NCBI GenBank assembly: GCA_031423495.1
Contig: JANPFP010000152.1
Span: 2,168-66,167, forward strand
From: Acidobacteriota bacterium
Lineage (GTDB): Bacteria; Acidobacteriota; Blastocatellia; RBC074
Length of the DNA stretch: 64,000 nt
Direction of reading: 5' to 3'
Both the position numbers and the translations under genes were made by a program. The notes beneath the pieces were generated by a model, which worked only from the letters and a program-made list of their open reading frames with translations, made no database searches and was not told the DNA's origin. Below, one piece after another: positions 36,515-52,601 of this stretch (within the stretch, counting starts at the first letter, position 1; each line of letters opens with the position of its first letter).

Positions 36515-36612
36515 CAGGGAGTCAGGAGTCAGGAGTCAGAATTCAGGAGTCAGAATCAGAAGGCAACGCAATTGCATTTCATTCTGACTCCTGACTCCTG
36601 GCTCCTGAATTC
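36515..36612. repeat. Heptamer (CAGGAGT) tandem hairpin overlapping the 3' end of the dehydrogenase gene
   Basis: ggagtcaggagtcaggagtcaga ... ttctgactcctgactcctggctcctg. It encodes the final residues (SGARSQESE) of the adjacent ORF. Confidence 0.75.
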
Positions 36613-37577
36613 TTCTTCATAGGTTTTGAAAAATTCGCAAAATATTTTGCTTCGCCGCCGTGCAAGACCGCCGCTACATCGCGGCAGATTGCGGTGACGA
36701 CGCGGTGTTGGGCTTCGCGGGTTTGCGCGCCGATGTGTGGCAGTTGAATGACGTTATCCATTGCGTCAAACGCGCTGGGCGCGGGTGGTTCCTGTAGCCT
36801 CACTTCGAGCGCAGCGCCTGCGATGCGTCGCTCTTGCAATGCGTTGAGCAGCGCGTCTTCTTGCACGATACCGCCGCGCGCCGTGTTGAGAAAGTATGCC
36901 GTTGGCTTCATCAGCGCGAATTCGTCAGTGCCAAACATGCCGCGCGTCTCTTCGGTTTCGGGCAAGTGCAGCGTGACGTAATCGGCGTTGGCTAACACGT
37001 CTTCTAGATAGGTCAGTCGCGTACGGCTTTCGAGCGCGCGCAAGCTGCCGGCGTCAACATAAGGGTCATACGCGATGACGTTCATGCCCAACGCGCGGGC
37101 TTTGATTGCCAGCACGCTGCCGATGCGCCCGAAGCCCACGATGCCCAGCGTCTTGCCCGAAATTTCAGTACCCATAAAACGCGGACGATCCCAACGCCCC
37201 GCTTTGGTGTCGCGGTCAGCCAGCGACAACTTGCGCGACAGCGCGATCAACAATCCGATAGTGAGTTCGGCGACGGAATTTGAATTCTGTTCGGGCGTGA
37301 GGGCTACGACAATGCCGTGATCGTTGGCGGCTGGCAGGTCTACGTTATCCATGCCTACGCCGGCGCGCCCGATGATTTCGAGACGCGGAGCCGCCGCCAT
37401 CAGTTCGCGCGTGAGTTGCGTTTGATTGCGCGCAATGATCGCGCGGAAGTTGGAAATGGTTTCGATCAGCTTGTCTTGCTGCTGCCAGAGGTCAGGCGCA
37501 AAGACGAGATCGAATTGCTGACGCAATTCATCCATTGCGGTGCCGATGATGTTTTCTGTTACGAGAATGTCGGGCAT
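36579..37577 (-). CDS. D-isomer-specific 2-hydroxyacid dehydrogenase (SerA-like catalytic domains, no ACT domain)
   Basis: RAGVGMDNVD, TLGIVGFGRIG, VTLHLPET, NTARGGIV, PHIGAQT. Confidence 0.9.
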   Translation of the reverse strand: MPDILVTENIIGTAMDELRQQFDLVFAPDLWQQQDKLIETISNFRAIIARNQTQLTRELMAAAPRLEIIGRAGVGMDNVDLPAANDHGIVVALTPEQNSNSVAELTIGLLIALSRKLSLADRDTKAGRWDRPRFMGTEISGKTLGIVGFGRIGSVLAIKARALGMNVIAYDPYVDAGSLRALESRTRLTYLEDVLANADYVTLHLPETEETRGMFGTDEFALMKPTAYFLNTARGGIVQEDALLNALQERRIAGAALEVRLQEPPAPSAFDAMDNVIQLPHIGAQTREAQHRVVTAICRDVAAVLHGGEAKYFANFSKPMKKNSGARSQESE

Positions 37578-38073: not shown

Positions 38074-38433
38074 TTACTGCTTGAGCGTTCGGGTGAAGGC
38101 CACGACGTTATCCATCTCTGCGGGCGTGAGCGGACGTGGGTCTTTGATCGCCTGCATTTTGCCGAAGCCGTCGGTCATGGACTTGCGAAGCTCGGCATCG
38201 CTCTTGTCCTGAACCACCTTGGAGCCAAGATGCACGAGGGGCGCTTTCACCAGCCGGTACATCTTGGGTACGCCTTCGCCCAATTCGCCGTGGCACTTTT
38301 TGCAGCTGGTCATATACAAGGCTTTGCCAGCCACTGCGTCCCCCTTGGGTTTTTCCTGCGCTTGAGACCTCGACGTAGCCATTAAGGCGATCATCATCAA
38401 AGCCACTGTCAGAGCAAATACGTATCGTTTCAT
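38074..38433 (-). CDS. Periplasmic monoheme cytochrome c
   Basis: Signal peptide, a single CKKCH, and a distal Met candidate in GFGKMQ. Confidence 0.88.
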   Translation of the reverse strand: MKRYVFALTVALMMIALMATSRSQAQEKPKGDAVAGKALYMTSCKKCHGELGEGVPKMYRLVKAPLVHLGSKVVQDKSDAELRKSMTDGFGKMQAIKDPRPLTPAEMDNVVAFTRTLKQ

Positions 38434-38495
38434 TTGTTACGGACTCCTTTTTTTCAAAGCAAAGTATAAGGCAATAACGACGGAGCAGACCGCCG

Positions 38496-41285
38496 TTATG
38501 GCGCGCTTCCGAGCGTATAACGCAAAAAAACCGTCGCCACGTTGGCGTGATAGGTGCCATAACGCGCATCCTGAAAAAGATACTTCGGGACATCGCTGGT
38601 GATCGTTCCATGCACGTAAGGCTGCAGCGTATTGAAGCTGAAATCATCCTGCGTGTAGGGTTCATACCAGTAACGCATGCCTAGCTCAAGCCCCTGCCTG
38701 ATCCTGCGCGTAACGGCGAGATTGACATCGTGCCGCCGTATGACGGTATCGGGATAGGGGTTCGCCCCCGCATGCAGGATTGAATCTGCGCGCACAATGA
38801 ATGGGTTGAAGGTGCTGATGCGGTCGCGCGCAAAAGAAAGCGCATACGAAATATCCAACTGCCACTTTCCTTGCTGAGGCGCGGCGCTGATGCCGGTTTC
38901 AAAACTGTCCAGACTGCTGCGGCTGGTGCGCTCCCAGGTATTGGCGATGGGGAATTGCGCCAGTACCCCTTGCACGATAGCGCCCGGGGGAGCGGCGGGG
39001 TTGGGCAGCAGGTGCGCCAGGTCCCGATACCGTAACCGGTTGGTCTCGCGTGAATAGCTGGCAAAAAAGAAACTTTGGTTCAAGAAGGTAAACGAGAACT
39101 GGGCGTCGAGAAACGAGAGGTGATTGAAGGTACGCCCGTAAAAACTCTGGTCGTAACCTTCCGCCAGATAACGATAGGTAGCCGAGAAATTCGTGCGGCT
39201 GAGTTTCGTCAGCACCGGTTCAGCGTCATCAGCCGCTGCTGCTGCTTTCCCAGGTTCTGGGGGAGCCGGTACCTTAAATTTTTTGCGCGGCAACAACTCG
39301 ATGGTCAGGCTTAGGTCATTGCGGGTTCTATCGGTCTGATCAAAGCGGCGCAAGAGATTGAATTCAATGGGGAAGCCTCTGTTCATTCTCGTGAACGACG
39401 TTACTACCCAGGCGCCTTGGGGACTACTCGCCGGGGCGCCTTGGTAACCATTATTCGTACCTGTGCCAAAGGCGAGCGCGCACTGATCCGGTGGCGTCAA
39501 ATTTGGCACCGCATTCGCAGGGCAAAACGTCAATGGCTGAGAGTTGTAGGACGTCGCGCGCCGGTTCGAGTAGCGGTAATCGGCCTTAAAACCAACTCCC
39601 GCGTCAGTGGTCAAATCCAGCCGGTTTCTGATGCTGTGTTCATTGTTACGATTCACATCCCGAAACTTGCGGTTCCAAAGCTCTCCGTCATAGTCCACTC
39701 GCCAGGTCAATGATACGTCTGGCCGGCAAATGCTCGCGGTGTTGCCGATCACGCAAGGCACCTGTTGCGGCAACAGCTCCCAGACAAAGCCCGCGCCCAG
39801 ATTCTGGCGTCTAAAATCCCAATCGAGGTTCTCGATGGGCAGGTTGTAAAAATCTGTCCTCGCTGCCCGCCACGTCGAATCGCCAAATGCGGCATAGCCC
39901 GGGAACTCAAGCGAGCGGGTTTGAGTGTCCAGGGATTGCGCACGGTATTGCGCCTGAAAGCGGAAGTTTTTACTGCGGTTTACCAGGGCGTATTCCTGGT
40001 GAATGTTGCGCATCTTCCCGTTCAGGCTTTGTGCCGGAAGCTCCTTGACGTCGGTGGGATTGTTGATTGGGGATATCCCGTCCCAGTCCCTTGGCCTGAT
40101 GGCCGTGTTCAGCGTCCACGGGAGGAAGGCATCGTTCTGCGTCCAGTAAGCCAACGAGAAAAGGCCGCGCAATTGGGTTTTCGGCGTCAGGTCAGCGTTC
40201 GCCCAAAAATTGATGGTGTGAGAATCGTTGTTGGGAGCCAGGTCGCTCTGCCACCGCACTTGGCGGAATCTATTCGCGGCGCCACAGGTTAGCGAAGGCG
40301 GAGTTGTTAGATTATTAGGAGTACATCCTTGCTCGTCAGTGGTCCGAAAAGGATTTTCGAAAGTCAGCGATCCGACACGGTTGCGAAAGAGCGAAAGGTC
40401 GTAGTCCACACCAGCATTCCATTTCTTGCCGGTGAACTGCGCTCCCGCCTTGAGGTCGGTCGTCCGATAGTCGAGCGGCTCTAGAAACTCTTGCCCGATC
40501 CCTTCCCATAAGCCCCCGATGTCTGCGAGGCCATTCGCAGGAACGGGTCGCCGGACGAATGAGCCGACGGACATGGGGCGCGTCCCGCGAGTGCGCAACC
40601 GACTAAACTGGACGTACAACTCGACCTTATCCGTGAGGCGGTAATCCTGCCTGAAGAGAGCTTGATCCCGACGGAGCCGCACCTCGGTGACGGGCGCAGT
40701 CTGTAGCTCCTGGCGAATAAGGTTCGACACTTCGGAGGTCGGACTGATGCGCGCTTCTGGGCTGGTCAGGGCTTGCAGGCGCGCGCGCAGCGTAGGGCTG
40801 ACTTGATATACGCCGGGCGCGGTGTATTGCAGGAAAGACCTGCCGTTGCCGAAGGCGTGCGGGACCTGATCCCAGACAAATTGCGTTCGGTATTTACCAA
40901 TCTTCCCTACCTCTGCCGTGAAACGCTGGTCAAGCTGGCGAATCTCAAAGCCTCTCAGCGAGAGAAAGTAAGGAGAATCGGCGGAATTAAAATCCAGCTT
41001 CAAATTCTGAACAAAGAACCCTTTGGGAACATCGCGCACTTCCTGAAACTTGGCGGGATGGTCGCCTTGCGTGTCCCGCGTCTGTCCGCCGAATTCGATG
41101 GTGGTCTTTACTCTGGGCGGTATGGTTGTCTTGTCTATTTCAGGTGCCTTCGCTGGCTCAGGCGCTTTCGCTGGTGGTGTCTGGCCCCAAACGTGAGGCG
41201 TAAACAGGAACGTCGAGAGTACGCAAGCGATGAAAGCGAACTCGACGCGAAGAATCGGCTTAAGTCTGTGTGGTTGAATTTTCAC
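38496..41285 (-). CDS. MtrB/PioB-family outer membrane beta-barrel (decaheme-associated porin)
   Basis: 929 aa with a signal peptide, AKFQEVRDVP, EPLDYRTT, LAPNNDSH and LRRFDQTDRTRN motifs, directly downstream of a decaheme gene. Confidence 0.85.
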   Translation of the reverse strand: MKIQPHRLKPILRVEFAFIACVLSTFLFTPHVWGQTPPAKAPEPAKAPEIDKTTIPPRVKTTIEFGGQTRDTQGDHPAKFQEVRDVPKGFFVQNLKLDFNSADSPYFLSLRGFEIRQLDQRFTAEVGKIGKYRTQFVWDQVPHAFGNGRSFLQYTAPGVYQVSPTLRARLQALTSPEARISPTSEVSNLIRQELQTAPVTEVRLRRDQALFRQDYRLTDKVELYVQFSRLRTRGTRPMSVGSFVRRPVPANGLADIGGLWEGIGQEFLEPLDYRTTDLKAGAQFTGKKWNAGVDYDLSLFRNRVGSLTFENPFRTTDEQGCTPNNLTTPPSLTCGAANRFRQVRWQSDLAPNNDSHTINFWANADLTPKTQLRGLFSLAYWTQNDAFLPWTLNTAIRPRDWDGISPINNPTDVKELPAQSLNGKMRNIHQEYALVNRSKNFRFQAQYRAQSLDTQTRSLEFPGYAAFGDSTWRAARTDFYNLPIENLDWDFRRQNLGAGFVWELLPQQVPCVIGNTASICRPDVSLTWRVDYDGELWNRKFRDVNRNNEHSIRNRLDLTTDAGVGFKADYRYSNRRATSYNSQPLTFCPANAVPNLTPPDQCALAFGTGTNNGYQGAPASSPQGAWVVTSFTRMNRGFPIEFNLLRRFDQTDRTRNDLSLTIELLPRKKFKVPAPPEPGKAAAAADDAEPVLTKLSRTNFSATYRYLAEGYDQSFYGRTFNHLSFLDAQFSFTFLNQSFFFASYSRETNRLRYRDLAHLLPNPAAPPGAIVQGVLAQFPIANTWERTSRSSLDSFETGISAAPQQGKWQLDISYALSFARDRISTFNPFIVRADSILHAGANPYPDTVIRRHDVNLAVTRRIRQGLELGMRYWYEPYTQDDFSFNTLQPYVHGTITSDVPKYLFQDARYGTYHANVATVFLRYTLGSAP

Positions 41286-41294
41286 TTGCTCCTC

Positions 41295-42308
41295 CTAACG
41301 TGAAAGGGTTCTGCCGCCGGGGTGATTCGAGCCATGAACCATGGCGTGGCAATTGGCGCAGCCGCGATTGAACGACCAGATGTCCAGCGGTTTGCCGGCG
41401 GTGGTCGAATGGCGGGGCAACATATGAATGTGGCATTGCTGGCACAACAGATGAGGGCGCGCCGTCAGCAGCTTGGGATTGCTCGAACCATGTGGCGAGT
41501 GACAGCTCAGGCAATTCTCGCGGACCGGTGGATGGTCCCAGAGAAACGGGCCCCGTTTTTCGGCATGGCAGGTGTAACACAGACCATTGGCGGAATGATT
41601 GTTGAGCATCTTCCCGCCCTCTCCGCCATGAGCATTGTGGCAGGAAGAGCAACCGACCTTCATGTTGTGAGCCTCGGTGCGAAACAGGTGAGTAGAGCGC
41701 TTATTAAAGTCTGCCCGCCGGTTGCTGTGGCAGGAAAGGCAAGTCTCTTCCTCGGTGCGGCGCGTCAGCATTTTGGTCTCTGACTTGCCGTGGTGGGCGC
41801 TATGGCACGACAGGCAGCTCATGTCGTTGCGATCATGCGGGCCGCCGCGCCAGCCCAAATGAGTGCGATCACGGGCGTGGCATTGCAGACACGATTCGTT
41901 GACCTGCGCCATCTTCATATTGGGCGGATTGGCGATGTCTTTGGCTTCGAGCGTCTCAATGTGTTTCGTGCCGTCGCCGTGGCAGCTTTCGCAACTCGTA
42001 GCGCGCGCACCCCGCAGGAATTTGCCGCTCTTGCCGTGCGCGTCGAGCGCGTAGGAGTCCACGGTTTCTTTGTGGCACTGCACGCACTTCGCGCCGACGA
42101 CGATGGGTTGAGCCACCTGCGCAGCGGGTTTCGTTTGTGCCGGAGTTTGTGCCGGAGCTTGTGCGGGAGTTGGTACGGGAGTTTGGGCAGTAGGCCCAGT
42201 GGGCTTCATCAAGGCTAGAAACAGGCCGATGAAGATTACGCCAAACGATAAGGCTACAGTCCGTTTGGCGAAAGACAGAGAAGACATTCTGCTGACGTGT
42301 CGAATCAT
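41295..42308 (-). CDS. DmsE/MtrA/PioA-family decaheme c-type cytochrome
   Basis: Exactly 10 CxxCH motifs, plus EKRGPFLWDHPPV..NCLSCHSPHGS.NPKLL and CANCHAMVHGSNHP. Confidence 0.95.
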   Translation of the reverse strand: MIRHVSRMSSLSFAKRTVALSFGVIFIGLFLALMKPTGPTAQTPVPTPAQAPAQTPAQTKPAAQVAQPIVVGAKCVQCHKETVDSYALDAHGKSGKFLRGARATSCESCHGDGTKHIETLEAKDIANPPNMKMAQVNESCLQCHARDRTHLGWRGGPHDRNDMSCLSCHSAHHGKSETKMLTRRTEEETCLSCHSNRRADFNKRSTHLFRTEAHNMKVGCSSCHNAHGGEGGKMLNNHSANGLCYTCHAEKRGPFLWDHPPVRENCLSCHSPHGSSNPKLLTARPHLLCQQCHIHMLPRHSTTAGKPLDIWSFNRGCANCHAMVHGSNHPGGRTLSR

Positions 42309-42519
42309 GGGGAACCTCGATTTGTAGGGGAGAGGTTAATTTCAACAATGCCGAACGCGGCAGAGGTTAGTTGAAGTTATCTGTTCTTGCAATGGTGAAT
42401 GGCACTTCATTCCCTTGCCGCCGGAATGCCCGTGCCACTATAGTCGCGCGCATCGCAACTTGAATTTTAGCTCTACGCAACAGACGGTCATTCGTGATTG
42501 ACCGCCACGGTGTGTCCCC

Positions 42520-43701
42520 GTGAAAAGAACTTTCCCCACATTGTTGACGCTGTTTTTTATGCTGGCTGGCGTATGGCTTTACGTCGGCGCGCAGGGAAAA
42601 CGCGCCGCGCCTCCCGGCAAAATTGACTACGCTAAATTCAAACATTCATCGCACGCGGGCGCGCTCAAGGCTTCGCGCAAAGGCGGTGTCGAGCAACTCG
42701 ATTGCGCTTACTGCCACGGAACCCTAACGCCCAATAACCCAGAACTCGTGCGGGGTTATCCGTACCGAAAAAACGGACTGAAAACTGAGGCGACCCATTC
42801 TGCCTGCGCTGATTGCCACGCCATCAGTGGGCGCGAAGCCATCACCGAAGGCACGTTTCCGGCGATGTGTTTGATCTGCCATCAAACCGCCAGCTTCGCC
42901 GCAATGGGCAAGAACCTGCGCACGTTTCCCAATCCGGCGGCGGCATCGTCACAGTTCTTTGATCGTTATGCGCACCTCGAACACAGCGTCTATTTCGAAG
43001 CTTCTGCCTTGTTCAAAGAACGGTTCAAGGACAAAGCGAAGTTCAAGGAAGAAGACCGCTTTGAATGTGTCGCTTGTCATACGACGAATCAGGTAAAGAG
43101 CGTTATTGCCAAAACACAATTTGATGTCGGAGCGCGCGAAAGCCGTCCCAGTCATCCCGAATGTTTCGTCTGTCACTTCAATGAGAAAGAAGTGGCGAAA
43201 GACAAAGCGGCTTTCGCTACGAATTGCGTCGCGTGTCATGCGGTGAAGGGCGAGCCGGACGGCAAAGGCTCTGAGCTTGCGGTGCATTGGCTGGTGCGGC
43301 AGATCGTGAATCCCGAAAAGAATCCGGCCAGACCCAAGCGCGGTGAAGAACCGCTCAAGCCCTTCAGCCATAAATCGCACGAAGACGACGACGATAAATC
43401 AACTGCGAAATGTGTGGAGTGCCACGTTACGGCGAAGCGCGCCGTGCGGCGTTCGGATTTTTTTGCGGAAGACAGCGAGGAAACGAAAGAGAAGCAGCCG
43501 CCCGCTGCGGGCTGCATTGAGTGTCACAACAGCGAAGGGCAGATGCAGCAGAAAATCGAAGGCGCGGTAAAACTTGAAACTTCAAAGTGCGTTTATTGCC
43601 ACGCGCCCACGACAATGAAAGAGTTGGCAGCCAAAGGAGCGCTAATGCCGCCGCCAAGTCATCTCGGCAGGAAGCCCACCGTCCCCGCGAAGCCTCAATA
43701 A
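42520..43701 (+). CDS. Periplasmic nonaheme c-type cytochrome (three c3/c7-like triheme units)
   Basis: Signal peptide and 9 CxxCH motifs, each trio preceded by an (F/Y)xHxxH motif. Confidence 0.88.
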   Translation: MKRTFPTLLTLFFMLAGVWLYVGAQGKRAAPPGKIDYAKFKHSSHAGALKASRKGGVEQLDCAYCHGTLTPNNPELVRGYPYRKNGLKTEATHSACADCHAISGREAITEGTFPAMCLICHQTASFAAMGKNLRTFPNPAAASSQFFDRYAHLEHSVYFEASALFKERFKDKAKFKEEDRFECVACHTTNQVKSVIAKTQFDVGARESRPSHPECFVCHFNEKEVAKDKAAFATNCVACHAVKGEPDGKGSELAVHWLVRQIVNPEKNPARPKRGEEPLKPFSHKSHEDDDDKSTAKCVECHVTAKRAVRRSDFFAEDSEETKEKQPPAAGCIECHNSEGQMQQKIEGAVKLETSKCVYCHAPTTMKELAAKGALMPPPSHLGRKPTVPAKPQ

Positions 43702-43709
43702 ACCAAACT

Positions 43710-44690
43710 ATGCAGACGCGGAAAATCAAACTTATGCTCTTGCTCACAGCGGCCTTCGGCGCGGCGCTGAGTTTGCCGTTGGTCACGGCGCAAGAGAAAC
43801 CGGACTATGGTCGCTTCACGCATAAAACTCATACCGGCGCGGTCAAGCTGCCGGGTTCGCAGGAAACACGCGAGTTGAAATGCGACGCCTGCCACGAGCG
43901 GCTGATTACCCGTCAGCCCTTGCTTGCCGCCAACGAACACAATCAGCGCTTGCAAGTGAATTTTCCCGGACACAAAGCCTGCGTCGAATGCCACATCACG
44001 CAATTCACCAAGCGTCCGCTTCAGACTTGCGCGATTTGTCATAGTCTGGAAAAAGGCCAGGAAAAGGGATTAACCGCGCGTCCGTTGCAACGTGACTTTC
44101 CCGCGCGGCGCGATTACAACGCTTACTTCGACGGCAAGCAGCATCTGGATCATGTGAACAAGTACGCGATGGCTGATGGCAAGAAACTGGAATGTACCTC
44201 GTGTCATAAACCGACGGCGAAACAGGCGGCGCTCACGATTCCTTCGCACGCGGAATGTTACGTTTGCCACGCGCCCAACAGCAGCGACGCGAAGGCGAAG
44301 CTCAAGACCGATTGCAGCGTTTGCCATACGCAGCAGATGGCATCGCAGACGGTTGGGCGCGTCGAACCGTTCTCGGCGAAGTATACGAGCCGCGCGTTCG
44401 GCGCATTTTTTGCGCATCGCACGCACGTCACTTACGCGGGCGGCAGTTGCTCCGCCTGTCACACGCTCGAAGGAAAATATAATCAACCGCTGGCCGCACC
44501 GAGCAGCATTAGGGTGAAAGAACATCTTTCGCCCGGCGAGCGCAGCGGACGCGGTTGTTTCAGTTGCCACGACGGTGGAAAGCATTACGGACGCGCGGCC
44601 TTCAGCGGCGAAGACGCGGGCGCGTGCATCAAGTGTCATAAAACGCAGGACAAAAACGGACGACCACTGGTGCGCCCGACCGACGGATAA
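43710..44690 (+). CDS. Periplasmic nonaheme c-type cytochrome (three c3/c7-like triheme units)
   Basis: ATG at 43710 (MQTRK), signal peptide, 9 CxxCH motifs, and FTHKTH / HLDH / FAHRTH leaders. Confidence 0.88.
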   Translation: MQTRKIKLMLLLTAAFGAALSLPLVTAQEKPDYGRFTHKTHTGAVKLPGSQETRELKCDACHERLITRQPLLAANEHNQRLQVNFPGHKACVECHITQFTKRPLQTCAICHSLEKGQEKGLTARPLQRDFPARRDYNAYFDGKQHLDHVNKYAMADGKKLECTSCHKPTAKQAALTIPSHAECYVCHAPNSSDAKAKLKTDCSVCHTQQMASQTVGRVEPFSAKYTSRAFGAFFAHRTHVTYAGGSCSACHTLEGKYNQPLAAPSSIRVKEHLSPGERSGRGCFSCHDGGKHYGRAAFSGEDAGACIKCHKTQDKNGRPLVRPTDG

Positions 44691-44783
44691 TTGGACAGGA
44701 TTAACAGGATTTTCAGGATGGACAAGATGAAGATAACGGTGTAATGCCCATGTCGATTGGTCAATCCTGTTAATCCTGTCCAA
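44691..44783. repeat. 9-mer tandem (ACAGGATTA) inverted-repeat hairpin
   Basis: ttggacaggattaacaggatt (44691-44711) pairs with aatcctgttaatcctgtccaa (44763-44783). Confidence 0.75.
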
Positions 44784-44817
44784 TTTCTTCTCTGTGCTGA
44801 ATTAGTTTGGGAAAATC

Positions 44818-47316
44818 ATGCCCCACGAAATCACGAAACATACCGCTGTGCTGGAAGCCATCAAGAGCATCGAGGCCATCGCTGATCTCGTAGCCGCGCC
44901 CGGCGATCAATACGATTATGAGGTAGATCTCGAAGTCATCGTTTACGGTCGCAATTACAACGGCAAGAAAGTCGGGCCTTACGCGCGGCTGCTCACTTAC
45001 GATGCGGGCGAAGAAATTCTTCGTGAAGGCGCGTGGGGCGGCAACGCTTTTTACTTTGTCGTGCAGGGCGAGGCCGATGTGTTTGTCGCGGGGCCAGACG
45101 GCGAAACCAAAGTGGCTTATCTGCCGGTCGGCGCGCAGTTCGGCGAAATGTCTGTGTTAGCGGGCGGCATCCATTCAGCCACCGTGCGCGCGTCGGAAGA
45201 AGCGCCGATGCAGGTACTCGAAATCAGGCGGCCCGCGTTGCGCTTGTTGCGCAAGCTCCCCAAGTTCGGCGAACGGTTCGACATCACTTATCGCCGTTAC
45301 GCGCGCGCCGTCACGCTGCAAGACCTGGGCGCGGCGGCGCACCTCAGCCTCGCAGTCGTCAAGCAACTCGAAGCCGTGGCGAAGTTCCGCGTTTACTCGA
45401 AGCGGCATGTGTTGTTCCGCGCGGGCGAACCCATCGAGCATGTCTACGTTCTGCGTTCTGGTTGGGTGCGGCTGTCAAAGCAAGGTACGCAATTGCTCAA
45501 CGTCAGCGACGAAGAGAGCCGCGACTGGAACATCACGGCGAACGAAACTTATCTCGGCCCTTCGCATTGTTTCGGGCTGGAAGCCGTCACGCGCGACAGC
45601 GCCTGGACGCAAACCGGCGTCTTGCTGGGTCGCACCGAAGTGCTGGAAATTTCTCTCGCCAAGTTGCGCGAGGAACCTGAGTTGCGCGAACCCTTGCTGG
45701 CCGCGCTCGCGCCGCTCGCGGTGACGCCCGATGAAGCCGCGCAACGTCAGCCTTTGCCGATTGCGACGGCGCAAAAACAATTGATAGACACCGGTCTGGT
45801 AGACGGCGCGAATTTGTTGTTGATGGACATGGACTTATGCGTGCGCTGCGGCAACTGTTCGATGGCTTGCCATCAAGTCCACGGACAATCGCGCTTGCTG
45901 CGGCGCGGCATTCACATTACCCGTCCCGTGTCACTGAAGCCTGTGTTGTTAGAGAAAAAAGCGGGCAAGCCAACTACTGGTTTCCAGAGCCTGCTGTATC
46001 CTTCGGTTTGCATGCATTGCAAAGACCCTGAGTGCCTGACTGGTTGTCCGACCGGAGCCATTGGCCGTTTCGCGGGCGGACAGATAGACATCAATCCTGA
46101 GACCTGCATCGGTTGCAGCGACTGCGCTACGCAATGTCCTTACAACGCCATCTCGATGACACAACGGCAGCCACAAGTAGAAGTCATGGGCGCGCAACAG
46201 CGAGTGCTTAACTTGTTGCGGCTCGCGCCTGAACCGCTGCCCGCGCCGGTCACTGCGCCCACAGGAACCGGCGTCGAACTGCTTGCGGTCAAATGCAATC
46301 TTTGCGCAGGCACCGGCCTCAACCCGCCGGACGCCCAAACACCGGCTTATAGTTGCGAAGAAAATTGTCCGACGGGCGCGTTGCTGCGGGTGAATCCGCA
46401 CACTTATTTCGCCGAGATCAAACAGATCGAAGGCGTAGTCTTTCAGGATGCGACGCACGCCATCGCGCGCCACGTCTCGCATCAGGATCGCGGCAAACAG
46501 TTGATGCACGCTCTGGGTGCAACCGCCGTCGCGCTGCTCACGTTGCTTACGCTGTTGGGGCTGCGGCGTTATACGCACGACCTGCCCTTCTTGGGCAGTT
46601 GGTTCAGCATGCGTTGGCTGACTGGCCTGACAGGACTCATCGGGTTGGCGGGTGTGATGGCTTATCCGGTGCGACGAAGAATTTATCGCCAGCGCGCCGG
46701 GCCGCTGCGTTATTGGATGCTCGCGCATAGCTACCTCGGCGCGCTGGCGGGCATTGTCTTGCTGCTGCACGGCGGCGCGCGGTCAGGCGGCGCGTTGACG
46801 ACGGCACTGATGATCTCGTTCGATCTGGCAATTCTCACCGGCCTATTCGGCATCGTTTGTTATTTCTGCGTGCCGCGTTTGCTGACGAAAATCGAAGCGC
46901 AACCGCTGCTGCTCGAAGACCTCATCGCGCGCCGCGCGGAGTTGGCTGAAGAGTTGCGCGCCGCGCTCGCCGCCGCTTCTGACGAATCGCGCGCGTTGCT
47001 TGAGCAGCGAGCGTTCCCGCAGTTGTTGTCTCTCGGCTTTTTGCTGCGCCAGTACTTCAAGCGCGAAAGCCTCGAAGCGTTGACCGCCAGCGCGCAGCTT
47101 GAGTTCGAGTCAGCGGCAGACGGATTGCCCGCGCGCGAGCGGGACGGCTTTCGTCAAGCCATCGAACTCGCCGCCCTCAGTCGTCGCGTAGACGCGCTCA
47201 TATACCTGCATCAAACGCTCAAGCTGTGGGTGGCTCCGCATGTGCTGGCGACTTCGTTGATGCTGGCGCTGATGCTGGTTCACATAATTCAAGTGATCTA
47301 TTTTGCAGTGCGATGA
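44818..47316 (+). CDS. Two cNMP-binding-like domains + DmsB/NrfC-like 4x[4Fe-4S] domain + C-terminal cytochrome b-like membrane domain
   Basis: FGEMSVL..ATVRA and FGLEAV. Cys clusters CVRCGNCSMAC, CMHCKDPECLTGCP, CIGCSDCATQCP, CNLC...CEENCP. TM helices carry two H-x13-H pairs. Confidence 0.85.
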   Translation: MPHEITKHTAVLEAIKSIEAIADLVAAPGDQYDYEVDLEVIVYGRNYNGKKVGPYARLLTYDAGEEILREGAWGGNAFYFVVQGEADVFVAGPDGETKVAYLPVGAQFGEMSVLAGGIHSATVRASEEAPMQVLEIRRPALRLLRKLPKFGERFDITYRRYARAVTLQDLGAAAHLSLAVVKQLEAVAKFRVYSKRHVLFRAGEPIEHVYVLRSGWVRLSKQGTQLLNVSDEESRDWNITANETYLGPSHCFGLEAVTRDSAWTQTGVLLGRTEVLEISLAKLREEPELREPLLAALAPLAVTPDEAAQRQPLPIATAQKQLIDTGLVDGANLLLMDMDLCVRCGNCSMACHQVHGQSRLLRRGIHITRPVSLKPVLLEKKAGKPTTGFQSLLYPSVCMHCKDPECLTGCPTGAIGRFAGGQIDINPETCIGCSDCATQCPYNAISMTQRQPQVEVMGAQQRVLNLLRLAPEPLPAPVTAPTGTGVELLAVKCNLCAGTGLNPPDAQTPAYSCEENCPTGALLRVNPHTYFAEIKQIEGVVFQDATHAIARHVSHQDRGKQLMHALGATAVALLTLLTLLGLRRYTHDLPFLGSWFSMRWLTGLTGLIGLAGVMAYPVRRRIYRQRAGPLRYWMLAHSYLGALAGIVLLLHGGARSGGALTTALMISFDLAILTGLFGIVCYFCVPRLLTKIEAQPLLLEDLIARRAELAEELRAALAAASDESRALLEQRAFPQLLSLGFLLRQYFKRESLEALTASAQLEFESAADGLPARERDGFRQAIELAALSRRVDALIYLHQTLKLWVAPHVLATSLMLALMLVHIIQVIYFAVR

Positions 47317-47318
47317 AA

Positions 47319-47407
47319 CGGTTGCCGGTTGTCGGTTGTCGGTTGTTCGTGGTCAGCGAGCAGCGACCATTGACCACCAGTAACCGGCAACCGACAACCG
47401 GCAACCG
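47319..47407. repeat. Heptamer (CGGTTGT/ACAACCG) tandem hairpin between operon genes
   Basis: ggttgccggttgtcggttgtcggttg ... aaccggcaaccgacaaccggcaacc. Confidence 0.75.
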
Positions 47408-48856
47408 ATGAGTATGGCAATCAATCAATTCGTCATCATCCGCAATGATCTGGAAACCGACCCGGTGTCGCTCGAAACCGAAGGGCTGACCATCGGACGG
47501 CTCATCGGCAATGACCTCGTACTCAATCACCGCGCGGTCTCGCGCACGCACGCGGGCATCAAGGAAGTCAAAGGCGCTTACTGGATTTTCAATCTTTCGC
47601 ATGCCAACGGGACTTTGGTGAACGGCGATCTGGTTGAGAGCGTACCGCTGGCCGATGGCGATTTGATTCAAATCGGGCCGTTCATGCTGCGCCCAGAATA
47701 TACGCGCGACGGCCTGACGCTGACGGTCGAGATGAGCGTCAAACCTTTGCCGCTGGTCGCTGGCCGCACCGGCACGTTGTCATTGCCCGGCCAGACCGGT
47801 GAGACGGTGATGCTCGCCCGAAACCTGCTGCCCAAGTCTGAGCCGCTCACCAAAGCGCGAGCGACCCAGCGGCTCACCAGCACAGGCGTGCATACGGGCG
47901 ATCTCGAAGCGCCTGACGCGCGCGCGCTCAAAGTTTTTTGGGACAATCGCAAACGCGAAGCAGGCAAGCTCGAAATGCCTTCGCCGCTGCGACCGCAAGG
48001 CCGGCGGCGTTTCGGCAAGGCGCGCTTTTATTGGCGACCGACGGACGACCTGCGACGCGCCTGGCCGCTTTCATTGCTGGTGTGGAGCGCGTTGCTCGTC
48101 GCGGCGCTCGCGGTGGCAGCGACCTTCGTTTTCAAGGACGCTTATTCGCCCGGTGAACTCTCGGCATCGCATGTCCGCAATAATTTTTTGCTGACGCCGG
48201 CCATCGCCCACGCGCCGAACGCGGCGTCCTGCACGACCTGTCACTCAGCGCAAGCGACGATGCAACGGAACTGCGCCGCTTGTCATACGACGCCCGCCTT
48301 CGATTCGTCGCTGTCAGAGAAACACACGATGGCGGGACTTAGTTGCACCGCTTGCCACACCGAACATCAAGGCCGCGACTTCAGCCCCGCGCAGGTGGCG
48401 AGCAATGGTTGCACAACCTGCCATCACGACGGGTCAGTCTCGCACGGCAAGCCACTGCGCACGCCGCACGGAGGCACGCTCGGCTATCCGTTGACGAACG
48501 GTAAGTGGGAATGGGCAGGCGTGACGCAAGCCGCGTGGCAGCGCAAGGGATTGCCGCGCGCGGCGACGCATTACGACCTGAGCGAGCAATTCCATCTCGT
48601 ACACCTTGCGGGACAGCGGCAAGGTCGCGCGAATTGTTCTGACTGCCACACCGCCGGATTCAAGGGCGAAGCCGTGCGGCAAGGCGTGCGCGAATCGTGC
48701 GCGACTTGTCACAGCGTCAGCTATCAAGTGGCGAGCACAAAAGAAGCGGCGACAGGTTGCGTCGCCTGCCACGCGCAGCACGGCGAAGAGAAAGCCTTGC
48801 GCGCTTCACGACGGCGCATGGAGTTGGTCACAGACATTCAAAAGGCGGTGCAATGA
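47408..48856 (+). CDS. FHA domain + single TM + periplasmic heptaheme cytochrome c
   Basis: FHA motifs TIGR...VSRTHA...NGTLVNG, TM LSLLVWSALLVAALAVAATFVF, and 7 CxxCH motifs. Confidence 0.88.
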   Translation: MSMAINQFVIIRNDLETDPVSLETEGLTIGRLIGNDLVLNHRAVSRTHAGIKEVKGAYWIFNLSHANGTLVNGDLVESVPLADGDLIQIGPFMLRPEYTRDGLTLTVEMSVKPLPLVAGRTGTLSLPGQTGETVMLARNLLPKSEPLTKARATQRLTSTGVHTGDLEAPDARALKVFWDNRKREAGKLEMPSPLRPQGRRRFGKARFYWRPTDDLRRAWPLSLLVWSALLVAALAVAATFVFKDAYSPGELSASHVRNNFLLTPAIAHAPNAASCTTCHSAQATMQRNCAACHTTPAFDSSLSEKHTMAGLSCTACHTEHQGRDFSPAQVASNGCTTCHHDGSVSHGKPLRTPHGGTLGYPLTNGKWEWAGVTQAAWQRKGLPRAATHYDLSEQFHLVHLAGQRQGRANCSDCHTAGFKGEAVRQGVRESCATCHSVSYQVASTKEAATGCVACHAQHGEEKALRASRRRMELVTDIQKAVQ

Positions 48857-50523
48857 AAAGAGCGCAACTCATCATCACGCTGTTGCTGCTGGCGCTTTTG
48901 CTCGCACTCGGCTTTGCCTTTCGCCTGCCCGCGAATTACGGCGCGCTGCCGTGGTTTGGTTGGCTTGTGCTGGCAGCTTGCGCGCTCGGCTTGGGCTTCG
49001 GCTTTGTTGCACTTGATACGGCCAAGCGGCGCAAATACATTTTCGCGCCTGCCAGCGAAGCCAAGCCCCAAGTGCCCAGAACTTCGGCGTTGTTGCCGAT
49101 CATCACCGACCCGAACCGTCCGCCTTATCCGCATCCGGTTATCAATCAGCAAACCTGCATCGGCTGCCACGCCTGCGTCGAAGCCTGTCCGCACGATGTG
49201 CTGGCAATGGTGAACGGCCTCGCCGTGGCGATTGCCATTGACCAATGCGTAGAGGACACAAGCTGTCAGGTCGAATGCCCTACGAATCCCAAATCCTGCA
49301 TCGTCATCAATACGAGCAAGACGATTCCCGAACGTCAGGTGCCGCAGCGCAACCGGCAATTCATGACAGACGTACCCGGCCTTTACCTCATCGGCGACGT
49401 ATCGGGCGTGCCGCTCATCAAGAACGCGATCAACGAAGGCGGCGACGTCATCCAGCACATCGCCAACGAACTCAAGCATGCAGAAAATCAAGACGCCGCC
49501 GATTACGACGTAGCCATCATTGGCATCGGGCCTGCCGGACTCTCAGCCACCGCCCGCGCCAAAGAACTTGGGTTGAGTTACGTCGCTATTGAACAGGGTC
49601 AAGCCCTGGCCGCCATCCAACAGGCTTATCAGGCGGGCAAACTGGTTTACTTCAAGCCCGATGAAGTTGAAGTGACGGGCGGCATTCCGCTGCCCGACGC
49701 GCCTGCTCCGAAAGAAACGATGATCTCAATGTGGTTGGAGACGCTGAAGTCTCAGCAACTTCGGATCAATGAATTTGAGAGTTGCAAAAACATAGAGCCG
49801 GACGGCCCGAGCGGCAATGCCTTCGTCATCACGACCGTGCCAGACAAAACCAGACTGCCGACGCAATACAAAGTTCGCCGCGTGATTCTGGCGATTGGCA
49901 ATCGAGGCACTCCCATGCGTTTGAGAGCGCCGGGTGAAGAACTGAAAATCGAAGTGACGCCGACCGAACCGGTCTTGCCCGCTTTCTGTAACAAGTGCGG
50001 CGAAAAGCGCACGCGCCAAGCCAAGTTCTGCCGCGAGTGCGGCACGGAATACGTCGGCATCGTTCCGCCGTCTTTCGCGGACGACAAGGTTAAGTACCGG
50101 CTGAGTGACCCGAACCATTACCAAGGCAAACACTGCTTGATCGTCGGCGCAGGCAACTCCGCCGTCGAGACCGCCGTAGACCTGGCGGCTTATCGTTCGG
50201 CGGACGGCAGCCAGATCACCGGCTGGCGCGACAACACGGTGACGCTCGTGATTCGCAGCGATTTCAGAAGCGATCTCAAACTCGGCAACAAGATGATGAT
50301 TTATGAGTGCATTGACGAAGGCCGCATCAACGCCTGCTTCGGCGTCACGGTGAAAGAGATCACGACAACCGAAGTCGCGCTCATGGACGCGCGCGCGCGT
50401 GACTCGTTGACGGCTCAGGAAAAGGCGCGCGTCAAAAACGATTACGTCTTTGCGCTCATCGGGGGCGACAAGCCGACCGGGTTTTTAGAACGGTTGGGCA
50501 TCAAGATTGGGCAGGGATCGTGA
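48853..50523 (+). CDS. Membrane-anchored 2x[4Fe-4S] ferredoxin + thioredoxin-reductase-like FAD/NAD(P) oxidoreductase with zinc-ribbon insert
   Basis: ATG at 48853 overlaps the upstream stop (ATGA). Two N-terminal TMs, CIGCHACVEACP, CVEDTSCQVECP, IGIGPAGL, CNKC...CREC, IVGAGNSA. Confidence 0.87.
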   Translation: MKRAQLIITLLLLALLLALGFAFRLPANYGALPWFGWLVLAACALGLGFGFVALDTAKRRKYIFAPASEAKPQVPRTSALLPIITDPNRPPYPHPVINQQTCIGCHACVEACPHDVLAMVNGLAVAIAIDQCVEDTSCQVECPTNPKSCIVINTSKTIPERQVPQRNRQFMTDVPGLYLIGDVSGVPLIKNAINEGGDVIQHIANELKHAENQDAADYDVAIIGIGPAGLSATARAKELGLSYVAIEQGQALAAIQQAYQAGKLVYFKPDEVEVTGGIPLPDAPAPKETMISMWLETLKSQQLRINEFESCKNIEPDGPSGNAFVITTVPDKTRLPTQYKVRRVILAIGNRGTPMRLRAPGEELKIEVTPTEPVLPAFCNKCGEKRTRQAKFCRECGTEYVGIVPPSFADDKVKYRLSDPNHYQGKHCLIVGAGNSAVETAVDLAAYRSADGSQITGWRDNTVTLVIRSDFRSDLKLGNKMMIYECIDEGRINACFGVTVKEITTTEVALMDARARDSLTAQEKARVKNDYVFALIGGDKPTGFLERLGIKIGQGS

Positions 50524-50536
50524 GCGACTTGGTGAC

Positions 50537-51880
50537 TCACGCCCCTCGTACCGCCAACGTAACTCGTTGATAGTCTTTCAACGTGATGAGCGCAATGGCG
50601 ACGCCCAGCAGCGGCATCAGCGCAGCCATAAAGAAAATCGGAGTGTAACCAGTTCGATCAACAATGATGCCGGTGATGAGCGGGAACATTATTCCGCTGA
50701 CGCCGTTTGCCACACCGGTCAAACCCGTCACGCGCGCGACGGCAGAGTTAGGGAATACATCCGACACAGACGCGAACATATTGGCTGACAGAAAAGTATG
50801 TCCTAACAGAATCAGCGAGATCAGCCCGATGGCAACAACGATGCTACCAGTCATTGGAACCAGAAAGCTAAGCAGGCAAAGCGCCGCGCCGAACAGCAAC
50901 GTTGCCTGTCTGGTAGAGTTCACCCGCCAGCTTTTGCTCAATAGCCATGCGGCTGCCAGCCCGCCGCCGATGCTGCCGATGTCGCCGAACAGGAAAGTGA
51001 CAGAGTTGAAATACGCGCTGTCTTTAATGCTTAGGCCGCGTACGTCACGAAAGTATTTTGGCATCCAGTAAAGATAAAACTCGACGACCGGGCCGACCCA
51101 GAAACGGCAGAGCATCAAGCCCCAGGTTTGTTTCAACTTGAGCAAATCCCAATTGCTGGGCGATGAGTACGTAGTACCGCCTTCAGGCGGAATCTCGCGC
51201 GCGTGAACGCTTCCGCCTGAAGGCGGTACTACGTACTCATCGCTGTTGATGTGCGCGAGTTCGGCCTGACTGACCGAAGGATGTTCGTTGGGTTGGCGAT
51301 AAGTGAACCACCAGACCAGCACCCAAACCATGCCTAACAGACTGGGTACGAGAAAGCCCATGCGCCAGCCGAAATGTTCGCGGATCGGGATAATCAAAAA
51401 CGCCGCGACGAACGAACCGAACATCGAAGCGCTGTTAAAAACGCCAATGGCAAAGGCGCGTTCGCGGACGGGGAACCAACTGGCTACGATCTTGTTGCCG
51501 CCCGAATAGTTGCCGCATTCGCCCGTACCCAGCCAAAACCGAAATATGCGAAAGTGCCAGATCGAAGTCGAAAGCGCGTGCATTCCGTTGCCGACCGACC
51601 ACCACAGCACCGCGAAGGCTAGGCCGATGCGTACGCCGACACGATCCATCAGCATGCCCATCGGGAATTCGCCCAGCATCATGCCGAAGCGAAACCACGA
51701 GACAATCGTGCCGAAAGCCGTATTCGATAATTTGTATTCGTCGGTGATGTCATTGCCGAGTACGGCGAGGGCCTGGCGATCTACGAAATTGATGACGGTG
51801 ACGAAAAACAAAAGGGCGAGCATCCACCAACGGACTTGGCGATACCACGGCGGCATAGATGATGTCGGGGCAGTTTGCAT
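50537..51880 (-). CDS. MFS transporter, ACS/ExuT-like sugar-acid permease
   Basis: RWWMLALLFFVTVINFVDRQAL, MDRVGVR, FRFWLGTGE, WFPVRERAFAIG, and about 12 TM segments. Confidence 0.92.
   Translation of the reverse strand: MQTAPTSSMPPWYRQVRWWMLALLFFVTVINFVDRQALAVLGNDITDEYKLSNTAFGTIVSWFRFGMMLGEFPMGMLMDRVGVRIGLAFAVLWWSVGNGMHALSTSIWHFRIFRFWLGTGECGNYSGGNKIVASWFPVRERAFAIGVFNSASMFGSFVAAFLIIPIREHFGWRMGFLVPSLLGMVWVLVWWFTYRQPNEHPSVSQAELAHINSDEYVVPPSGGSVHAREIPPEGGTTYSSPSNWDLLKLKQTWGLMLCRFWVGPVVEFYLYWMPKYFRDVRGLSIKDSAYFNSVTFLFGDIGSIGGGLAAAWLLSKSWRVNSTRQATLLFGAALCLLSFLVPMTGSIVVAIGLISLILLGHTFLSANMFASVSDVFPNSAVARVTGLTGVANGVSGIMFPLITGIIVDRTGYTPIFFMAALMPLLGVAIALITLKDYQRVTLAVRGA
51163..51240. repeat. REP-like inverted pair inserted in frame inside the MFS gene
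   Basis: 30-bp perfect inverted repeat (51163-51192 and 51211-51240), 78 bp in total, same family as 18111 and 23733. Confidence 0.9.
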
Positions 51881-51893: not shown

Positions 51894-52601
51894 TTATGGT
51901 TTATGCGCTTGTACCCATTGGCGGAAGCTGCGTCGCATGCTGTTCACGCCGTTCGCCTTGCCATTTTGAATCGCTGTGACCAACGCCTCTGCGATCAGGA
52001 AAGGAAAGATTTTGCTATGCGCGACTCGTTGATAAGCGCCATCCGCTAACTCATAAAATTCGATTTTCCTTTCGTTGTAACGCCACAGTTCGCCAATGCC
52101 CAGCCCCGCATAAATCGGCAGTTTGCTTAAAGAAGGATTGGTGACATCCACTTCGATTGCCAGATCGGGTGGCGCGTCGTAATCGAGATTGACGCGCTCT
52201 TTGCCGAGAATACGTTGCAGGTTTTCGATATAAAAAGTGTCATCAGCTTCCGCGCCCTTTTCAGCGCGTTCACTCGTCATCGTCATCGAACCGGTGCTGG
52301 TATATTCAAGCCCCAGCTCTTCCGTCAGCACTTGCACCAACTGGCCGAAGAAGCGTGCCTCGTTATCGTCTTGCAATGAGACGCTCATAATTTCCATCTT
52401 CCCCCGGTTGTAGCTGATGCGAATGCGACGAATACCCATCAAGTCTTCCACCAGTTGGGCGTAAACTTTCCACGGCACTTCTTCCAGAAAGAACCGGCTG
52501 CCTCTCGGCATGGATTGGATAATGATGTGGTAATTAGGACGGCTCGGTGCGGCAACTGCACTCGTAATTAACTCCTTCTTGTAAGGTTCGATCAGCATCA
52601 T
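51894..52601 (-). CDS. Uma2 (DUF820) family endonuclease-fold protein
   Basis: VPWKVYAQL, RISYNRGKMEIM, GAEADDTFYI, PPDLAIEVD, IYAGLGIGELWRY. Confidence 0.88.
   Translation of the reverse strand: MMLIEPYKKELITSAVAAPSRPNYHIIIQSMPRGSRFFLEEVPWKVYAQLVEDLMGIRRIRISYNRGKMEIMSVSLQDDNEARFFGQLVQVLTEELGLEYTSTGSMTMTSERAEKGAEADDTFYIENLQRILGKERVNLDYDAPPDLAIEVDVTNPSLSKLPIYAGLGIGELWRYNERKIEFYELADGAYQRVAHSKIFPFLIAEALVTAIQNGKANGVNSMRRSFRQWVQAHKP

Follow-up and report, generated by a model that had tools for sequence, protein, structure and literature searches.

A conserved inner-membrane gene trio as a candidate NAD(P)H-to-cytochrome outlet beside an MtrAB-type conduit in an acidobacterium

The subject of this analysis is a cluster of eight contiguous redox genes, here called g1 to g8, at positions 38,074 to 50,523 of a 64,000-nucleotide stretch of DNA from an Acidobacteriota bacterium (assembly GCA_031423495.1, contig JANPFP010000152.1), and this whole stretch is referred to as the window. 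Three of the genes, g6, g7 and g8 (the trio), appear to encode an uncharacterised and widely distributed inner-membrane complex, and comparative genomics fits the notion that this complex is a transmembrane wire leading from NAD(P)H to cytochrome c. To our knowledge, the known extracellular electron transfer systems of Gram-negative bacteria leave the inner membrane by way of quinol dehydrogenases (for instance CymA, ImcH and the Cbc proteins). For the present locus we give about an even chance to its being an outward electron outlet from NAD(P)H to cytochromes, which would run through the trio and would end, in this organism, at MtrAB.

An earlier note on this DNA had treated the three inner-membrane proteins as a unit, and this is borne out by synteny and by gene fusions alike. 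Homologues of g6 number more than 2300 in the protein collection, and relatives are found in at least 588 matched stretches of GTDB species genomes, the nearest of them being metagenome-assembled genomes (MAGs) of Acidobacteriota and the wider family being labelled Blastocatellia or Pyrinomonadaceae. When the window proteins were compared by tblastn with the best 80 loci among these at least 588 stretches, g7 was found directly 3' of g6 in all 68 loci with downstream sequence, and of 47 loci whose sequence extends 7 kb or more downstream, 46 have both g7 and g8. Furthermore, no fewer than nine Blastocatellia loci encode g7 and g8 as a single polypeptide of about 1050 residues, with the order forkhead-associated (FHA) domain, transmembrane (TM) helix, seven hemes, a single return TM helix, ferredoxin and FAD/NAD(P) domains, and the periplasmic heme domain of this fusion stands in for the first of the two g8 helices, as topology requires. 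Myxococcota-type fusions of g7 and g8 are 1253 and 1429 residues long, contain from two to four FHA domains along with six hemes and follow a g6 homologue in a Myxococcota MAG and in one other locus, and a further protein (P0255) combines a heptaheme domain of the g7 type (32% identity, E=4e-38) with a TM domain of the g6 type in one chain. Because these fusions are independent, they argue strongly that g6, g7 and g8 form one complex.

The g6 protein joins tandem cyclic nucleotide (cNMP)-binding-like domains, an iron-sulfur domain and a membrane domain in one chain. Its iron-sulfur domain has four groups of invariant cysteines (341/344/347/351, 398/401/406/410, 430/433/436/440 and 493/496/513/517), and these 16 residues are sufficient for four predicted [4Fe-4S] clusters. 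The top NCBIfam matches of this domain are the formate dehydrogenase beta subunit, DmsB and HybA, all of them well under their cutoffs. Since a signal peptide is missing and the cNMP-type domains lie N-terminal to the iron-sulfur region, the domain is most readily placed in the cytoplasm, and it is no stand-alone subunit, as it is fused between the cNMP and TM domains and has no catalytic partner gene nearby, whereas NrfC, DmsB, FdnH and HybA are separate subunits of molybdoenzyme, hydrogenase or Nrf complexes and in many cases are exported by the Tat system. The C-terminal 290 residues contain five predicted TM helices, with an Arg-rich insert of 110 residues between TM4 and TM5. Four histidines, His637, His651, His808 and His822, are invariant in 58 of 58 divergent near-full-length representatives, in which Trp633 and Trp804 are nearly invariant as well and His798 is not conserved. 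On TM3 and on TM5 alike, two of the histidines are 14 residues apart (i/i+14), and in the predicted topology each pair has one His close to either face of the membrane, a classic pattern that suggests two putative bis-His b hemes stacked across the bilayer. The membrane domain and its TM-only relatives match no Pfam family, and a word-indexed homologue search with the domain returned only fragments of the same family, whereas an exhaustive profile search retrieved 1994 clusters at 50% identity (E<=1e-3), which fall into three architectures: cNMP, Fer4 and TM domains as in g6, TM-only proteins of about 275-310 residues, and the cytochrome fusion.

The periplasmic hemes of g7 match c3/c7-type models only and no NapC/NirT model, and with one predicted TM helix but seven hemes g7 is evidently not a member of the NapC/NirT/CymA family. 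As for g8, its flavoprotein part is distantly similar to PDB entries 7A76 and 7A7B (YpdA/Bdr; E=1e-13 to 4e-10), which points to a YpdA/TrxR-like fold, and it has the conserved motifs GxGxxG for FAD and GxGxxA for NAD(P) together with an R-S pair after beta-2 that is typical of NADPH sites. Outside the iron-sulfur motifs and a poorly conserved zinc ribbon no conserved CxxC was found in g8, and matches to TIGR01292 and TIGR04018 are both far under the cutoffs. Lacking the conserved redox-active CxxC, g8 was rejected as a thioredoxin reductase. In the predicted topology of the trio, the NAD(P)/FAD, iron-sulfur, FHA and cNMP domains are all cytoplasmic and the c hemes periplasmic.

From the gene content, the motifs, the conservation and fusions of the trio and the predicted topology we infer a path in which NAD(P)H would reduce the FAD and then the two [4Fe-4S] clusters of g8, which would pass electrons to the four [4Fe-4S] clusters of g6. 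From there they would reach the putative b heme on the N-side of the membrane (His637/His808), then that on the P-side (His651/His822), and would leave through the seven c hemes of g7 for g4 and g5 and, in this organism, for MtrA within MtrB and an extracellular acceptor. The trio would in this manner carry electrons across the cytoplasmic membrane without a quinol dehydrogenase of the NapC/CymA type, the two nonaheme cytochromes could bridge the periplasm, and the outer-membrane module would consist of a decaheme inside an MtrAB-type porin and a small monoheme cytochrome c, with no MtrC-like surface cytochrome. The earlier note had stated that the direction of flow cannot be read from sequence, but a bioenergetic argument goes some way towards settling the matter. 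To reduce NAD(P)+, electrons from Fe(II) or cytochrome c would have to climb several hundred millivolts, and on their way inward they would move against the inside-negative membrane potential as well. Since no energy-coupling subunit is present either, outward flow appears favoured. Outward flow would be downhill and aided by the membrane potential and would conserve no energy, and the cytoplasmic FHA and cNMP-type domains make sense in such a system, because an unregulated non-conserving outlet would be harmful and would need tight control.

The cluster itself consists of two divergent operons according to the open reading frame (ORF) listing, and the coordinates of its genes and domains are collected in Table 1. 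The minus-strand operon has the order g3, g2, g1, with gaps of 9 bp (g3/g2) and 62 bp (g2/g1), and the plus-strand operon runs from g4 to g8 with spacings of 6, 127 and 91 bp and finally a 4-bp overlap between the g7 stop and the g8 start. The starts used for g5 and g8 (43707 and 48853) lie downstream of the longest-ORF starts and are backed by the N-termini of orthologues. Heme-binding CxxCH motifs sum to 36 (1, 10, 9, 9 and 7 in g1, g3, g4, g5 and g7, respectively). A six-frame translation of the entire window holds 45 such motifs, 37 of them inside the cluster. Outside the cluster the background is about 8 per 100,000 residues, a rate at which about 0.1 would be expected by chance in the 1658 residues of the five cytochrome ORFs, as against the 36 observed. 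The 37th motif of the cluster, CIGCH in g8, is part of a CxxCxxCxxxCP iron-sulfur motif, and being cytoplasmic it was rejected as a heme site. Domain searches and the CxxCH scan of the window identified no NapC/CymA-like tetraheme, no MtrC/OmcA-like gene and no further multiheme ORF. The gene and heme-motif counts of the earlier note, its two operons and its statement that CymA/NapC and MtrC/OmcA are missing from the window are thus all confirmed.

Table 1. Genes, domains and regulatory region of the cluster, in window coordinates
Feature	Coordinates	Strand	Basis
g1, secreted monoheme class I cytochrome c, 119 aa, CKKCH	38074..38433	-	Pfam Cytochrom_C E=4e-10; signal-like N-terminal helix
g2, MtrB/PioB-family outer-membrane beta-barrel porin, 929 aa	38496..41285	-	Pfam PF11854 (MtrB_PioB) E=9e-63
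g3, MtrA/DmsE-family periplasmic decaheme cytochrome, 337 aa	41295..42308	-	TIGR03508 231 bits (cutoff 192)
Divergent intergenic region	42309..42519	.	Consensus scan; promoter-like -35/-10 pair TTGCCG..TATAGT at 42415-42444, for g4-g8 operon
g4, secreted nonaheme cytochrome, 393 aa, three c7-type triheme modules	42520..43701	+	9 CxxCH; Pfam Cytochrome_C7, 3 stretches; signal-like N-terminus
g5, second secreted nonaheme c7-type cytochrome, 327 aa from ATG 43707	43707..44690	+	9 CxxCH; Cytochrome_C7, 3 stretches; TIGR04257 nanowire_3heme
g6, 832-aa fusion of tandem cNMP-binding-like domains, four-cluster ferredoxin domain and 5-TM putative diheme domain	44818..47316	+	Pfam, NCBIfam
g6 cNMP-like domains 1 and 2 (residues ~45-145, 178-290)	44950..45687	+	Two Pfam cNMP_binding stretches, E=3e-26
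g6 predicted cytoplasmic four-[4Fe-4S] domain, NrfC/DmsB/FdnH type	45820..46392	+	16 invariant Cys; no signal peptide
g6 membrane domain, five predicted TM helices, His637/His651 on TM3, His808/His822 on TM5	46489..47313	+	Topology prediction; no Pfam family
g7, cytoplasmic FHA domain (residues ~22-95), one TM helix (~219-243), periplasmic heptaheme domain	47408..48856	+	Pfam FHA E=3e-14; 7 CxxCH; topology prediction
g8, two TM helices, PsaC-like 2x[4Fe-4S] ferredoxin, FAD- and NAD(P)-binding flavoprotein	48853..50523	+	Pfam Pyr_redox_3 E=1e-25, Pyr_redox_2, Fer4

The outer-membrane part of the cluster is a further member of a known family of conduits. The g3 protein aligns with MtrA of PDB 6R2Q (chain A) at E=3e-55 with all ten CxxCH in register, and g2 matches PF11854 nearly end to end (residues 77-887) with 213 bits against a cutoff of 23; the decaheme and the adjacent MtrB/PioB-family barrel that characterise the MtrAB, MtoAB and PioAB conduits of Shewanella, Sideroxydans and Rhodopseudomonas are thus both present, in the same mtrA-mtrB gene order. 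The porin is at the same time divergent, being long, matching TIGR03509 with only 152 bits against a cutoff of 240 and MtrB of 6R2Q (chain B) weakly at E=1.8e-4. The final gene of the operon, g1, occupies the position of MtoD in the mtoABD layout, in which a small monoheme cytochrome c is likewise encoded 3' of the porin gene, and a search of the PDB for relatives of g1 (E<=0.01) returned generic class I cytochromes and no MtoD entry. Unlike these systems the window has no CymA/MtoC, its proposed inner-membrane partner is wholly different, and the surface decaheme of the MtrCAB type, MtrC/OmcA, is missing from the 64 kb, though the rest of the genome may hold one.

MtrA and MtrB homologues adjoin the trio only in the nearest relatives of the window, among which L002 and L004 have the same divergent mtrAB layout and L005 has mtrB, cytc and g4 to g8 on one strand in this order, with a junction spacing of 157 bp. 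The promoter-like block upstream of g4 is invariant in the window, L001, L002 and L004, and L001 keeps it although a transposase lies upstream in the place of mtrAB. This transposase, an ISAs1-type DDE enzyme (L001:1075-2226), lies exactly at the homology breakpoint and suggests that the Mtr module was gained, lost or relocated among close relatives with the help of an insertion sequence (IS). Outside this clade the surroundings of the trio vary, and 15 of the 36 related loci whose flanks reach 8 kb or more on either side carry other multiheme cytochromes. In one set of Blastocatellia loci (group C) a tetraheme c3-barrel-like fusion, a 1380-residue nine-heme ExtM-like/LVIVD protein, a tetraheme cytochrome and an 8/9-heme pair are encoded upstream of the trio, in Pyrinomonadaceae a convergent set of 4/9/8-heme cytochromes lies 3' of it, and in two Myxococcota-type loci it is abutted by a Pcc-like set of a 15-heme lipoprotein-like protein, a heme-less secreted protein (554-581 residues, with an aromatic C-terminal residue), a 15/17-heme and a 6/7-heme protein. 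In view of this variety the trio resembles a movable unit of the inner membrane that is often, not always, paired with varied periplasmic and outer-membrane cytochrome hardware, of which MtrAB is the version of this lineage.

Some further observations were made on these loci. The fusion of group C combines a tetraheme c3 domain with a barrel-like C-terminus of about 600 residues that ends in KFTY, and this protein and the adjacent ExtM-like/LVIVD protein, found at L056:908-3241, L048:3521-7666, L052, L065, L066, L070, L075 and L082:17598-20597, may constitute a putative, undescribed cytochrome-porin conduit of the outer membrane. L005 and L052 lie on one contig (CAZJQQ010000008.1), which means that one genome has two tandem copies of the system, the first linked to MtrB and with split g7 and g8, the second with the tetraheme-barrel/ExtM-like set and a fused g7-g8. 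Twelve loci (L005, L018, L022, L024, L036, L037, L042, L043, L045, L047, L048 and L052) come from GTDB records entitled 'uncultured Clostridia', 'Heliomicrobium' or 'Heliobacteriaceae', and as these loci are syntenic with those of Blastocatellia at 52-71% identity, the MAG records are probably mislabelled.

Both the regulatory domains and the neighbourhood of the trio bear on how it may be controlled and on what may feed it. The tandem cNMP-binding (CNB) domains of g6 are PKA-R/PKG-like and agree with CNB domains in fold and in hidden Markov model matches, domain 1 containing the cassette FGEMSVLAG..ATV of the FGE..A phosphate-binding type and domain 2 being degenerate. The phosphothreonine-binding residues of the g7 FHA domain (GR, SR.H and NG) are at least 95% conserved among 48 orthologues. 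In group C, a gene for a metallo-beta-lactamase resembling class-II cAMP phosphodiesterases comes after the g7-g8 fusion, and next to it one for an FHA-GAF-adenylate/guanylate cyclase, with a cNMP-binding MscS-like channel encoded beside them (L056:15717-18198, L075:16603-18246 and L052:18379-19770, directly 3' of the fusion), and these signalling genes support real cyclic-nucleotide signalling around the family. As to the donor, G6PD, OpcA, glucokinase and a transaldolase-PGI (Tal-PGI) fusion are encoded beside the trio in about ten loci (L049, L052, L056, L059, L063, L065, L066, L072, L075 and L080), and in the window a transaldolase and a 2-hydroxyacid dehydrogenase are found next to g1 (35858-37577). 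These neighbours of the oxidative pentose-phosphate pathway give a modest hint that NADPH is the donor, although the pattern may in part reflect the shared ancestry of the loci.

Among known systems, CymA, ImcH, CbcL, CbcBA and NetBCD occupy the same position in a pathway, between inner-membrane metabolism and periplasmic multiheme cytochromes, and CymA is like g7 a single-TM multiheme protein. The trio differs from all of these in having its own NAD(P)-flavoprotein, six predicted cytoplasmic iron-sulfur clusters and FHA and cNMP-type domains. In Tmc and Hmc of sulfate reducers and in Rnf-MmcA of Methanosarcina (PMC6703419), cytoplasmic iron-sulfur and flavin chemistry is similarly connected to multiheme cytochromes c through a membrane subunit with b heme or iron-sulfur clusters, and MmcA is, like g7, a heptaheme; homology between the membrane subunits was however undetected, the flavoprotein of the trio is YpdA/TrxR-like rather than CCG/HdrD-like or Rnf, and the FHA and cNMP regulatory domains are the trio's own. 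The proposed membrane step has a parallel in layout in NOX, FRE and STEAP proteins, in which cytoplasmic NADPH and flavin are joined to two bis-His b hemes held by TM3 and TM5, the His of a pair being spaced by 13-14 residues and the acceptor lying outside. Neither by sequence nor by fold, however, does the g6 domain match PF01794 or NOX structures; it has five TM helices with a cytoplasmic insert of 110 residues, iron-sulfur clusters would stand between flavin and hemes, and the acceptor would here be a c-type cytochrome.

The earlier note had further supposed that a system of this kind is undescribed, and this is nearly right. Full-text literature searches turned up no description of the cNMP/Fe-S/diheme protein, its flavoprotein partner, the fusions or the link to MtrAB, but FHA-multiheme cytochromes with 5-TM and 4Fe-4S neighbours have been noted in Gallionellaceae. 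A preprint on Ferrigenium straubiae describes an FHA-nonaheme cytochrome beside motif-less 5-TM and [4Fe-4S] proteins, calls the combination unreported and of unknown function, and proposes that it serves Fe(II) oxidation to quinone (bioRxiv 10.64898/2026.01.22.701106), and a pangenome study of the Gallionellaceae lists a ten-heme 'forkhead-associated protein' (PMC9900912). These clusters share with the trio the FHA domain, the single TM helix, the periplasmic multiheme cytochrome c and the 5-TM and [4Fe-4S] neighbours, whereas they have nine or ten hemes in place of seven and no reported cNMP domains or NAD(P)-flavoprotein. Judged from their description they are probably a split relative of g7 and g6, and stand-alone TM-only relatives of g6, of about 280-310 residues, do exist. 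For the outer-membrane part, PioA/MtoA homologues in Acidobacteria and a porin-cytochrome complex of Holophaga have already been published. MtrCAB has been published from Acidobacteriia as well, namely from Bryobacterales with MtrC and with no inner-membrane quinone oxidoreductase nearby (PMC8805035), whereas the host of the window is Blastocatellia-like and has no MtrC in the window.

A number of observations weigh against the locus being an outward, signal-gated outlet from NAD(P)H to cytochromes, and they have to be considered together with the alternatives to which they point. As regards gating, domain 1 of the window g6 has His119 instead of the phosphate-binding Arg, the window copy and its three closest relatives having His or Tyr at a position where every other clade, including Myxococcota, has Arg, and within the 64-kb window no cyclase for cNMP, phosphodiesterase, Ser/Thr kinase or phosphatase was found. 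For the signal gating suggested in the earlier note, there is a hint on the FHA side in the conserved residues and on the cyclic-nucleotide side in the cyclase and phosphodiesterase genes of some relatives, but cNMP gating, plausible for the family, is doubtful for the window copy. The label 'cytochrome-b-like' used for g6 in the same note holds in so far as the four invariant histidines fit two b hemes, but neither Pfam nor a PDB fold search detected homology of the TM domain to any heme b protein, and the label is a functional one only. A Foldseek comparison of the TM-domain model (predicted local distance difference test, pLDDT, 71) with PDB folds gave a best E of 1 and no related fold, and the full-length AlphaFold2 model from 24 sequences is poor (pLDDT 57), with Foldseek matches limited to the PKA-R-like cNMP domains. 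With models this weak and no fold match, the analysis did not establish a relationship of the TM domain with cytochrome b or NOX. Moreover, modules that combine a four-cluster iron-sulfur protein with a diheme b subunit usually exchange electrons with quinones. The trio may accordingly be quinone-coupled, with a quinone site in the diheme domain of g6 as in FdnI, NarI and CbcL, in which case it would function as NAD(P)H:quinone oxidoreductase, as quinol:cytochrome c oxidoreductase or in both capacities, without any bypass of quinones and as a new quinol dehydrogenase in the role of CymA. This we judge to be rather unlikely. Iron-sulfur proteins of the FdnH/DmsB/NrfC/HybA type, to which the g6 domain belongs, normally work with membrane subunits that react with quinones, the g6 sequence is compatible with a quinone pocket, and in the Ferrigenium preprint a connection to quinone is preferred for the FHA-nonaheme cytochrome described there (bioRxiv 10.64898/2026.01.22.701106). 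However, g6 and g7 match no NapC/NirT, NrfD, NarI, Ni_hydr_CYTB or cytochrome b family, and the fusion of the NAD(P)-flavoprotein with heme c, taken with the conserved iron-sulfur chain, would provide a continuous cofactor path in which no quinone is needed.

The connection to the outer membrane is also less fixed than in the wire drawn by the earlier note, the trio not being a specific partner of MtrAB. Among the 36 related loci with long flanks, not one has MtrA or MtrB within a distance of 8-10 kb, some 21 (group B) lack any additional multiheme cytochrome in the neighbourhood, and in the closest relative, L001, which keeps g4 to g8, the ISAs1-type transposase occupies the mtrAB site. Hence the trio is independent of MtrAB, and perhaps of extracellular electron transfer as well. 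It could instead be a general supply of periplasmic reductant, for reductases, peroxidases, assimilatory ferric reduction or NOX-like oxidant handling, to which MtrAB has become adjacent by a lineage-specific accident. Such a role would suit the group B loci, which make up most of the Blastocatellia loci and have g6, g7 and g8 alone, genes for AAA+, PIG-L or rhomboid proteins separating g7 from g8 and neither porin nor extra cytochromes being found within 10 kb. It would also suit the fluid placement of MtrAB, absent in L001 and inverted in L005, and the fact that described Blastocatellia are mostly aerobic heterotrophs. We nevertheless hold it to be quite unlikely, since three unrelated putative types of outer-membrane cytochrome conduit are found beside the trio in three lineages and since the nonaheme cytochromes of the window clade share the operon and the promoter of the trio. 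The layout of mtrA, mtrB and a monoheme cytochrome without MtrC/OmcA, on the other hand, is that of mtoA-mtoB-monoheme operons and resembles the Mto and Pio systems of Fe(II) oxidisers, and FHA-multiheme cytochromes with 5-TM and 4Fe-4S neighbours not only occur in Fe(II)-oxidising Gallionellaceae but are expressed there (bioRxiv 10.64898/2026.01.22.701106). Both points would accord with an inward system, in which MtrAB, like MtoAB or PioAB, takes up electrons from Fe(II), minerals or electrodes and the trio delivers them to a cytoplasmic acceptor. Reduction of NAD(P)+ (about -320 mV) would however be strongly uphill and against the membrane potential with no pump or coupling subunit, as follows from established bioenergetics, the NADPH-producing pentose-phosphate genes beside the trio in relatives speak for the opposite direction, and the PDB search detected no homology of g1 to MtoD. 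An inward system is in our view decidedly improbable, and its acceptor might be one other than NAD(P)+.

On balance, the complete model of electron transfer from NAD(P)H to the cell exterior is the best available reading of the locus, provided that it is corrected in three respects: the trio is not MtrAB-specific, its cNMP gating is questionable here, and its independence of quinones is unproven. A more far-reaching proposal is that the trio is the first member of a new class of transmembrane NAD(P)H:cytochrome c oxidoreductases that do without quinone, are switched by cNMP and Ser/Thr phosphorylation and are built around a new diheme domain. They would be widespread in Acidobacteriota, Myxococcota and probably Gallionellaceae and would work with interchangeable outer-membrane conduits. 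This we put forward tentatively, as possible at somewhat less than an even chance.

Base composition is flat along the window, and the genes flanking the cluster are ordinary chromosomal ones (ThrRS, PheST, L20, peptidases, TonB-type barrels, an RND pump, transaldolase and 2-hydroxyacid dehydrogenase). An origin of the cluster as a mobile island was rejected on these grounds, although a close relative does have an IS element at the mtrAB junction. Directly 3' of g8 are an MFS transporter (50537-51880) and a putative endonuclease of the Uma2 family (51894-52601, minus strand), neither of which is kept beside the trio in other loci. Elsewhere, the minus strand encodes a 1099-residue PSCyt1/PSCyt2/PSD1 ('planctomycete cytochrome C') protein with two CxxCH and a laminin-G-like domain (9512-12811) and a diadenylate cyclase whose DAC domain is accompanied by the sensor domains DACNG and DACNH (7717-9267), which points to c-di-AMP signalling and has no evident link to the cluster. 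On the plus strand there is a 359-residue ORF (22648-23727) in which ribosomal protein L20 is apparently fused to, or read through into, a C-terminal DUF4332.

If the outward reading is true, a direct draw on NAD(P)H combined with second-messenger and phospho-sensing domains would represent a different design from the quinol dehydrogenases, namely a regulated redox valve rather than a respiratory branch. It would furthermore assign a function to an unannotated membrane domain that comprises about 2000 clusters at 50% identity, and the trio might be of use as a compact building block by which engineered cells are connected with electrodes. For the organisms themselves, it would provide a testable candidate for the exchange of electrons between abundant soil Acidobacteria and Myxococcota and the minerals and humic substances around them.

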